64,000 nucleotides of DNA from a virus. The DNA is taken from the IMG/VR virus record IMGVR_UViG_3300048918_000116, positions 7,245-71,244 of that record. One strand, 5' to 3'. Position numbers and translations under genes: made by a program. A model generated the notes under the pieces. The model did not search any database, was not told the DNA's origin, and saw only the letters and a list, made by a program, of their open reading frames with translations. Below are positions 43,829 through 44,078 of this stretch, piece after piece (the first letter of the stretch is position 1; every line of letters starts with the position of its first letter).

Positions 43829-43957
43829 CTCAAGATAGCTCAGTCTGGTAGAGCGCCAGGAACTTGCAGAGTGAAACGTCGGCCGAAGGCTCAGTAACCT
43901 GTCAAGTTGTACTGTATATAAAGAGGTCGGAGGTTCAAATCCTTCTCTTGAGAGCCA
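43829..43957 (+). ncRNA. tRNA-like RNA with a 68-nt domain replacing the anticodon arm
   Basis: Acceptor (T)CTCAAGA/TCTTGAG(A)-G-CCA; D and T arms intact; insert 43856-43923 with AACTTG-CAG/CTG-T-CAAGTT stem. Confidence 0.8.
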
Positions 43958-44078
43958 ACATTAGACTCAGTTAGCGGTTAGTCACCGTTTGTGGGGTGAA
44001 ACTCCTGACTAGGGGAGTAGCTCTATACGACGACCGGACGCCTCAGAAACGACGGATAATAGCTGAGTCTAATGTTGG
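43955..44078 (+). ncRNA. long-stem structured RNA starting at the CCA of the preceding tRNA-like element
   Basis: 19-bp closing helix CCAACATTAGACTCAGTTA/TAGCTGAGTCTAATGTTGG; internal GAA/AGTA motif. Confidence 0.65.

Follow-up and report, generated by a model that had tools for sequence, protein, structure and literature searches.

The viral contig IMGVR_UViG_3300048918_000116 (71 kb, rated 86% complete and labelled G000) carries two copies of a stem-closed RNA element, each consisting of a long perfect helix that encloses a branched domain. Both lie in the window analysed here, a stretch of 64,000 nucleotides at positions 7245-71244 of the record. Copy A stands 23 nt before the ATG of a gene for a DUF7173 protein (PF23791, E 1.4e-29), downstream of genes for an 800-aa primase-helicase and a MazG-like pyrophosphatase. 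Annotations of Queuovirinae phages, for instance NP1 and DoCa3, list their genes in this same order (primase/helicase, dUTPase or MazG, DUF7173, ligase). Copy B stands in a tRNA cluster, between a tRNA-like element and tRNA-Leu(GAG), and the window also encodes queE, queC, queD, folE and rtcB. All genes flanking the two copies are read on the + strand. Together with seven relatives, the copies form a small RNA family whose closing helix is conserved through compensatory change, and which we tentatively read as a module for processing or insulating parts of long phage transcripts.

The two copies were found at the places proposed from the letters of the window alone. The original prediction had described a 19-bp helix at 43955-44078 that closes a branched domain, and a second copy at 34688-34774 with the same terminal 8 bp and a different inner helix. 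Indeed, CCAACATT occurs at 43955-43962 and 34688-34695 and its complement AATGTTGG at 44071-44078 and 34767-34774, all on the + strand. A scan of the window for the terminal sequences returned 8 matches where 2.59 were expected, a number reached in none of 100 shuffles. Taking helix length as the count of contiguous pairs with G-U allowed, copy B has 19 pairs counted from C43955, and 20 when G43954-U44079 is included. The common part of the two copies is limited to nine terminal pairs (GCCAACAUU/AAUGUUGGU); further in, their helices and branched domains are unlike. Each copy has a highly stable predicted fold (minimum free energy -54.4 kcal/mol and z -5.85 for copy B, -46.8 kcal/mol and z -5.87 for copy A), with equal stability in none of 200 shuffles in either case. 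A covariance model, R1, scored copy B at 73.1 bits on the + strand versus 22.4 on the - strand, and copy A at 71.0 versus 18.1. In the window and in three related records, scanned over their whole length, that carry the family, closing helices of at least 18 contiguous pairs around 45-260 nt were family members alone; unrelated helices of at least 18 pairs are present in other, more distant phage loci. No Rfam 15 family matched either window copy at E<=10.

Table 1. Coordinates of the two window copies, their tRNA and tRNA-like neighbours, and the related elements (window positions unless a contig label precedes them).
Feature	Coordinates	Strand	Remarks
Copy A, stem-closed RNA	34687..34775	+	helix 34687-34706 with 34756-34775, 20 bp, 4 G-U
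Copy A interior	between 34706 and 34756	+	49 nt, two hairpins
Copy B, stem-closed RNA	43954..44079	+	helix 43954-43973 with 44060-44079, 20 bp, 2 G-U
Copy B branched interior	43974-44059	+	86 nt
Weak tRNA-like element 5' of copy A	34602..34690	+	sequence reading and folds
tRNA-like element directly 5' of copy B	43829..43957	+	Rfam tRNA 42.8 bits (43829-43953); joint fold
tRNA-Leu(GAG)	44082..44166	+	begins 2 nt after the last pair of copy B
Family member	G001:16405-16504	+	related viral contig
Family member	G003:23876-23998	+	related record, rated complete
Family members G006-1 and G006-2, tandem pair	G006:11624-11716 and 11776-11907	+	related contig
Family member	L459:2149-2225	+	77 nt, AACAUU foot type
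Family member	L461:1936-2054	+	119 nt, AACACAU foot type
Family member, more distant variant	L440:2807-2982	+	AACACAG foot

Relatives of the two copies were sought through their neighbouring genes, by way of DUF7173 and primase homologues in IMG/VR. This yielded a family of nine members in seven viral contigs, both window copies counted (Table 1); everything said of the family below rests on these nine sequences from seven uncultured contigs. Two genomes, G000 and G006, hold two different copies each. Six of the nine members precede a DUF7173 gene in the replication module (the neighbour of the L440 member is left out of this assignment), and six of nine lie 1-2 kb downstream of the primase-helicase. 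Every member folds better than shuffled sequence (z -5.2 to -7.7, n=9).

The closing helices measure 20, 20, 20, 19, 18, 20, 16, 20 and 20 bp, all contiguous and free of bulges, and thus are exactly 20 bp long in six of nine members. The interiors span 45-136 nt, are branched and can hardly be aligned, even between members at the same locus. A constant helix around a freely varying interior indicates that the helix, in its length and its foot, is what selection acts on. The foot reads (G)CCAACAYNU/ANRUGUUGG(U); its AACA/UGUU pairs are invariant in all nine members and the flanking pairs nearly so, the forms being AACAUU in six members, AACACAU in two and AACACAG in L440. That the element is repeated and conserved, with a foot of 8-9 bp in common, is therefore borne out well beyond the window. 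In the nine-member alignment (A4), 174 of 180 helix cells pair, 15 of the 20 pairs have changed on both sides and four never vary. None of 500 column shuffles reached the observed pairing, covariation score or compensatory counts, and a single one reached the observed value for pair types. When the 3' partner was shifted by 1-3 columns, pairing fell to 31-41%; in a six-member set, 118 of 120 cells were paired and 12 of 20 pairs were compensatory.

The fold is also polar. A G-U pair recurs at helix position 13 in six of nine members and a U-G pair at position 18 in five of nine, and the approximately 20 G-U cells on the + strand equal A-C mismatches on the - strand, indicating that the element is specific to the + (sense) strand. 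Across the members, covariance model R1 gave 52-81 bits on the + strand versus 16-33 bits on the - strand. The nine members match their covariance model by construction, and what is informative is this strand asymmetry together with the lack of other matches: run over 957 kb of sequence from 94 sources, related and control, the model built from the nine members gave no further match at E<=1. G-U polarity and model scores both support the earlier suggestion that the element is read as RNA.

Several searches converge on a family that is small, lineage-specific and narrow, carried by a clade of uncultured phages with Queuovirinae-like gene order. The element occurs in 5 of 69 primase-related loci and in 4 of 13 viral DUF7173 loci, and was not found in three cultured relatives, Variovorax phage VPv62, Xanthomonas phage DoCa3 and Pseudomonas phage NP1. 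Comparison of both window regions with a phage collection by blastn gave no match for the stems, and a DUF7173 alignment returned the known contig only from metagenome contigs and nothing from genome contigs. Apart from tRNA, no Rfam model reached its gathering score either in the window or in three relatives (105 kb). The pattern GCCAACATT...AATGTTGG, at gaps of 55-85 and 86-116 nt, gave at least 276 matches, 170 of them with just the eight required pairs; among the 276 matches listed, 14 or more pairs were formed only in L291 (30 bp) and L159 (16-17 bp), both of which are two-strand palindromes. These matches omit the known G001 copy, and DNA-pattern counts are lower bounds on spread. The element is not a common viral palindrome. 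CCAACA was also considered as a general promoter-like motif and rejected, with 33 copies on the + strand and 40 on the - strand of the window. L427, more distantly related by its primase, has what may be an analogous element at positions 5034-5147 (+), comparably placed downstream of primase: a 17-bp closing helix with another foot (AACGCCCC.../...GGGGCGUU) and 114 nt enclosed.

Both window copies directly follow a tRNA mimic. The mimic before copy B has an acceptor stem, a D arm and a T arm, and a 66-nt insert replaces its anticodon arm; it has no anticodon loop; its G-CCA (43954-43957) supplies the first four pairs of the copy B helix. In the weaker mimic before copy A, a 7-bp acceptor stem (CUUCAAG/CUUGAAG) and a canonical T arm, whose loop is GGUUCGAGUCC, can be recognised ahead of the G-CCA; its D and anticodon regions are poor, and it had no Rfam match at E<=10. 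ARAGORN calls neither of the two as a tRNA. When either copy is folded jointly with its mimic, the CCA becomes a paired part of the long helix, 0-1 nt past the acceptor stem, in agreement with the original prediction that the helix would bury it. The same prediction joined mimic and stem into a two-part module. That description fits this phage and fails as a general rule, since a tRNA mimic precedes two of the nine members, both of them in the window. A T arm followed by CCAACATT was matched at least 116 times in 115 loci of viral contigs, by ordinary tRNAs followed by a chance ACATT, and AATGTTGG followed within 260 nt in none of the 116 matches listed, so the element is not a general feature after tRNA genes.

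Other members have a different 5' partner or none. In four of nine (G003, G006-1, L459 and L461), a GCACCC-GNRA-GGGUGC hairpin stands directly 5' of the helix with zero nt between, and its last GC is the GC of GCCAAC; three members (G001, G006-2 and L440) have no adjacent 5' helix. Within IMG/VR, the 20-base hairpin pattern was confined to the G003, G006, L459 and L461 contigs. A search of 185,579 species genomes for the hairpin plus foot gave 13 chance matches in coding sequence, of which eight fell in the same repeated gene of one metagenome-assembled genome, and none had the closing helix. As an upstream helix abuts with 0-1 nt in six of nine members, end-to-end stacking of the two helices is possible. 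The CCA is conserved as part of the foot, not as a tRNA end; the tRNA mimic is an optional rather than an obligatory neighbour, and the one before copy B is a context peculiar to this phage.

The element behaves as a self-contained cassette that phages gain, lose and swap. Contigs L459 and L461 are 89% identical on the left (1328/1490) and 92% on the right (918/1000), with 47% identity between, where they hold unrelated MazG-like genes and different family members (77-nt AACAUU versus 119-nt AACACAU). Among contigs of a soil metagenome run (X2) aligned with the window, one ran from the tRNA-like CCA (34690) through ten other letters to 34788, with stem A missing, and another joined stem B (to 44080) to the queE leader (44274) without tRNA-Leu and tRNA-Pro. 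These joints are weak, being of a kind that is unreliable and supported by a single contig apiece, with 26-28 letters to a side; on this weak evidence, an X2 relative appears to keep the tRNA-like element without stem A.

Clean borders of presence and absence, such as the joint from 34690 to 34788 (weakly attested, by one contig with 28 letters on one side), are what a functionless, non-autonomous mobile inverted-repeat element, similar to a miniature inverted-repeat transposable element, would leave behind, as are several copies per genome with conservation of the termini alone. A small inserted inverted repeat of this kind was also the explanation that the original prediction named against itself. 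The gain, loss and swapping of the module agree with it in part; the compensatory changes and the G-U pairs on one strand do not, and indicate selection on the fold rather than transposon decay. Decaying arms would gather mismatches, whereas 174 of 180 helix cells remain paired, and copies within one genome have just the nine terminal pairs in common. No target-site duplication or flanking direct repeat was seen in the flanks of the members, and no integrase or transposase, including any PF00589 tyrosine recombinase, was found in G000 (86% complete). Nor has the closure spread in other viruses, where at least 14 pairs were reached at two palindromic loci among the 276 matches listed. We consider a mobile element without function very unlikely.

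Exchange of this sort could also come about if the element acts as a single-stranded DNA hairpin, either as a replication origin or priming signal or as a recombination site like integron attC. Six of nine copies are located 1-2 kb downstream of the primase-helicase, within the replication module, the element in L459/L461 was swapped together with the neighbouring MazG-like gene, and DNA hairpins tolerate G-T pairs. The invariant AAC...GTT of the element recalls the attC cores RYYYAAC/GTTRRRY. Like the element, attC sites are imperfectly conserved inverted repeats (57-141 bp) that keep mainly AAC...GTT near their ends, vary in length in their central part and take part in cassette exchange of the adjacent gene. 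Unlike attC, however, the element has no extrahelical bases, no unpaired central spacer and no accompanying integrase, with no tyrosine recombinase found in the 86% complete G000. Its folding strand is the coding strand, whereas attC sites fold on the bottom strand. Copy B is co-oriented with the tRNA cluster in which it lies, 2 nt from a tRNA, and conservation of G-U at fixed positions is more usual in RNA. A DNA hairpin is therefore a doubtful explanation.

A further reading, raised loosely by the original prediction, is that of a bacterial Y RNA. A YrlA-like RNA (RF02553) acting with Ro60/Rsr and RtcB would share with the element a size of 80-130 nt, paired 5' and 3' ends, a long stem and a conserved foot, together with the presence of tRNA-like structure and rtcB in the same genome. 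The window also has a partial YrlA match. That match reaches 33.7 bits against a gathering threshold of 69 and lies off the stems at 43794-43854, where it straddles two neighbouring tRNA-like elements, covering the T arm of the first and the D arm of the second, a known artefact of dimeric tRNAs; neither stem matched the YrlA model at E<=10. PMC4201824 describes GNCGAAN0-1G as the Ro60/Rsr-binding motif near the YrlA 5' end, and places YrlA within ~4 kb of the Ro60 (TROVE) gene on the same strand. The motif is absent from the 5' strand of all nine members (chance G.CGAA occurs inside two, at positions 44 and 82). As the original prediction had noted, no Ro60 gene is visible: there was no TROVE match in the 71-kb record, an absence that is not absolute at 86% completeness. 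The stem interiors lack the T-loop motif, and the tRNA-like part, where it occurs at all, lies upstream of the stem and is not enclosed by it.

The vicinity of rtcB, offered as a hint in the same direction, fares no better. RtcB is encoded at 50779-51966 of the window and also in G001; it is absent from G003, a record rated complete that carries the element, and a link between RtcB and the element was rejected on this ground. Instead, RtcB follows the tRNA-like elements upstream of queE, and not the stem. RtcB was observed in G000 and G001, both of which bear such tRNA-like elements upstream of queE. Every feature of YrlA membership that we examined fails, and we regard an attractive link to Y RNAs as mistaken; a Y RNA identity is scarcely credible.

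From the sequence evidence we lean, with reserve, towards a processing or insulator module that acts at the RNA level through an RNase III-sized helix. According to PMC6212723, the RNase III dimer accommodates ~22 bp of double-stranded RNA and makes staggered double cuts in intramolecular stems. The closing helix of 16-20 bp is of a size with such a ~22-bp intramolecular duplex, a stacked 5' helix can extend it in six of nine members, and its constancy at ~20 bp next to the ~22 bp of the dimer is the reason for favouring a processing module. The earlier choice of RNase III as candidate is compatible with this fit of length. Consensus scans, which give weak evidence, found no sigma-70-like promoter or intrinsic terminator beside either copy. 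Copy B lies between a tRNA-like element and tRNA-Leu, in a cluster that needs processing anyway, and copy A between a conserved upstream noncoding RNA with its tRNA-like element and the DUF7173 start codon. These positions, together with the lack of a flanking promoter or terminator, suggest that the element is made within a long precursor.

Under such a scheme the element would be carried in long + strand transcription units, and a host endonuclease specific for double strands, of which RNase III is the obvious candidate, would cut the precursor within the helix. The cut would part upstream stable RNAs (noncoding RNA, tRNA mimic or hairpin) from downstream mRNA or tRNAs and would release a capped, branched RNA; at copy B, RNase P cutting at the 5' end of tRNA-Leu(GAG) would define the 3' end. 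If the element is a processing signal, it would show how these phages divide long transcripts in which mRNAs stand together with tRNAs, tRNA mimics and further noncoding RNAs, and would constitute a compact, portable cleavage module of defined length. One may go further and imagine the 20-bp helix and the stacked 5' helix as a composite, sequence-marked cleavage site, at which a double-strand endonuclease cuts between CCA and ACA. Such a cut would leave a ready-made CCA-3'-OH on the tRNA mimic or mini-helix, requiring no trimming by RNase P or RNase Z and no CCA addition, and would also free a ruler-defined branched RNA. This would be a new phage device for making CCA-ended decoy RNAs, passed between phages as a cassette, and we consider it a long shot.

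Several points weigh against simple cutting. RNase III normally needs no fixed sequence, which leaves the AACA/UGUU foot and the position-13 G-U (six of nine members) unexplained and points to an additional or different partner that reads sequence. A search of G000 found no RNase III encoded by the phage. Folding of + strand single-stranded DNA, being tolerant of G-T pairs, would give the same covariation signal, and the location of six of nine copies in the replication module, next to the primase-helicase, must be set beside this. Finally, in five of the six copies that precede DUF7173, the 3' strand can pair over 6-10 bp with a CCAAC-type motif in the leader, and this alternative pairing hints at a regulatory switch over simple cutting.

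A partner that reads the foot is the essence of another possibility, less probable in our view, that the element is a stable, trans-acting small RNA or a protein-binding scaffold or decoy. Its foot would dock a phage or host protein as the stems of Y RNAs dock Ro60, and its variable interior would, with the same modest likelihood, hold the effector or target-binding part. Confinement of invariance to the foot (AACA/UGUU in nine of nine) and recurrence of G-U at fixed positions are typical of protein recognition, a 20-bp helix would shield both ends from exonucleases, and G000 and G006 each have two different copies. Yet no gene for a candidate partner accompanies the element: TROVE/Ro60 was not found, and RtcB is missing in G003. 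The interior is barely conserved even at the same locus, which is odd for an effector domain, and neither a promoter nor a terminator of its own was found. Should the foot nonetheless dock a protein, the element marks a new RNA-protein system in phages with 7-deazaguanine DNA modification and RtcB RNA repair.

The leader pairing raises the prospect of a cis-regulatory switch of the DUF7173 operon, in which the 3' strand (UGUUGG and beyond) pairs either with the 5' CCAACA or with a second CCAAC(A) motif in the leader, shortly before the ribosome-binding site. Such a second motif, CCAACAAU, is found in the DUF7173 leader (L459:2218-2251; L371:1300-1450; L461:2046-2180) and complements the 3' strand of the stem together with the next four bases. 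Position upstream of DUF7173 in six of nine members is in keeping with a switch. The complementarity extends over 10 bp in L459 (UGUUGGUAGC/GCUACCAACA) and in G001 (UGUUGGUAAG/CUUGCCAACA, with one G-U), ~8 bp in L461, 7 in G006 and 6 in G003, and the four bases past the shared hexamer co-vary between L459 and G001. The 20-bp stem, however, greatly exceeds the alternative helix in stability and is transcribed before it, so that the latter should seldom form. Window copy A has no second motif, with 23 nt to the ATG, and copy B precedes tRNAs and has no mRNA leader at all; relatives that lack the element have the leader motif too, and it is common for leaders to be rich in CA. We therefore hold a switch to be improbable. 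A second stem starting from the downstream CCAACAAT was also sought and rejected, as it had no 3' partner of more than 4 bp.

Returning to the processing module, its closest counterparts are the stems that RNase III processes in the early transcripts of phage T7 and in the stalks that flank 16S and 23S rRNA. Like these, the element is an intramolecular helix of about two turns that flanks an RNA domain in a polycistronic precursor, between genes or stable RNAs, and its copies, like sister sites in one phage lineage, are related in sequence. Unlike these, its foot is invariant and its G-U pairs are fixed, which RNase III stems do not require, and its cleavage is putative. T7 sites have internal loops, whereas the helix of the element is perfectly paired and closes a freely changing branched domain.

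The arrangement in this phage also recalls the tRNA-microRNA-encoded RNAs (TMERs) of murine gammaherpesvirus 68, in which tRNA-like elements are followed by stem-loops. In both, a tRNA mimic that does not look chargeable precedes a hairpin, which processing of the tRNA 3' end would free. TMERs differ in belonging to another domain of life with other machinery, there being no RNA interference pathway here, and the element closes a branched domain and is without a tRNA mimic in seven of nine members. The tRNA cluster of phage T4 encodes two stable RNAs of unknown function, species 1 and 2, which resemble the element, by description alone, as small structured non-tRNA RNAs among phage tRNA genes that tRNA processing presumably sets free; most members of the family lie outside tRNA clusters. 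Literature searches on the motif strings (matched by unrelated primers or siRNAs alone), on DUF7173 (no match) and on phage tRNA-like elements, RtcB and YrlA gave no description of the element (the phage-YrlA supplementary tables of PMC4201824 lie outside this scope). We thus have a previously undescribed RNA family, probably of a kind already known; whatever its role, it is a well-supported family absent from Rfam 15, with strong covariation from nine sequences.

Other structured RNAs lie close to the two copies. Just upstream of the tRNA-like element of copy A, a structured noncoding RNA of ~185 nt at 34415-34600 (+) shows ~80% identity to an intergenic stretch without annotation in Achromobacter phages AMA2 and SE2 (Steinhofvirus), where the flanking genes cannot be aligned. 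It has no Rfam match. Its terminal hairpin contains four compensatory pairs and is followed in AMA2 and SE2 by a terminator-like run of U that is absent in the window.

The mimic before copy B is the last of three tandem tRNA-like elements at 43585-43957 (+). All three have normal acceptor, D and T arms and aberrant anticodon regions, consisting respectively of an insert of ~95 nt, an 11-nt mini-hairpin and the 66-nt insert. Similar elements, likewise abnormal in the anticodon region, are frequent in the clade even where no stem accompanies them; two lie upstream of queE in G001 and one in G006 (coordinates of related tRNA-like elements, L120:2800-2950 and L404:15969-16071). They could possibly serve as decoys, substrates or processing punctuation.

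Beyond this cluster, the queE leader at 44262-44313 (+) is itself conserved, with the motif AACCCGYACUCR, a hairpin that co-varies between phages, and UGAUCCUC(NN)GAGG overlapping the ribosome-binding site. Nothing in Rfam matches this pattern, which recurs in five of six queE relatives (L120:2955-3000, and the same place in L126, L121 and L122) and is a candidate for a regulatory RNA of the 7-deazaguanine operon. Two HNH endonuclease genes, at 46779-47249 and 48577-49116 (+), lie among queE, queC, queD and folE, just upstream of rtcB. Between the two copies of the element, at the start of a gene for a Cas4-domain exonuclease, a perfect two-strand inverted repeat at 39264-39349 (GTTTTAAAGTGACG...CGTCACTTTAAAAC) has arms of 14-17 bp with no G-U. 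Repeats resembling it are present in two relatives (G003:28228-28362 and G006:17215-17352), and it looks like a DNA-level site.

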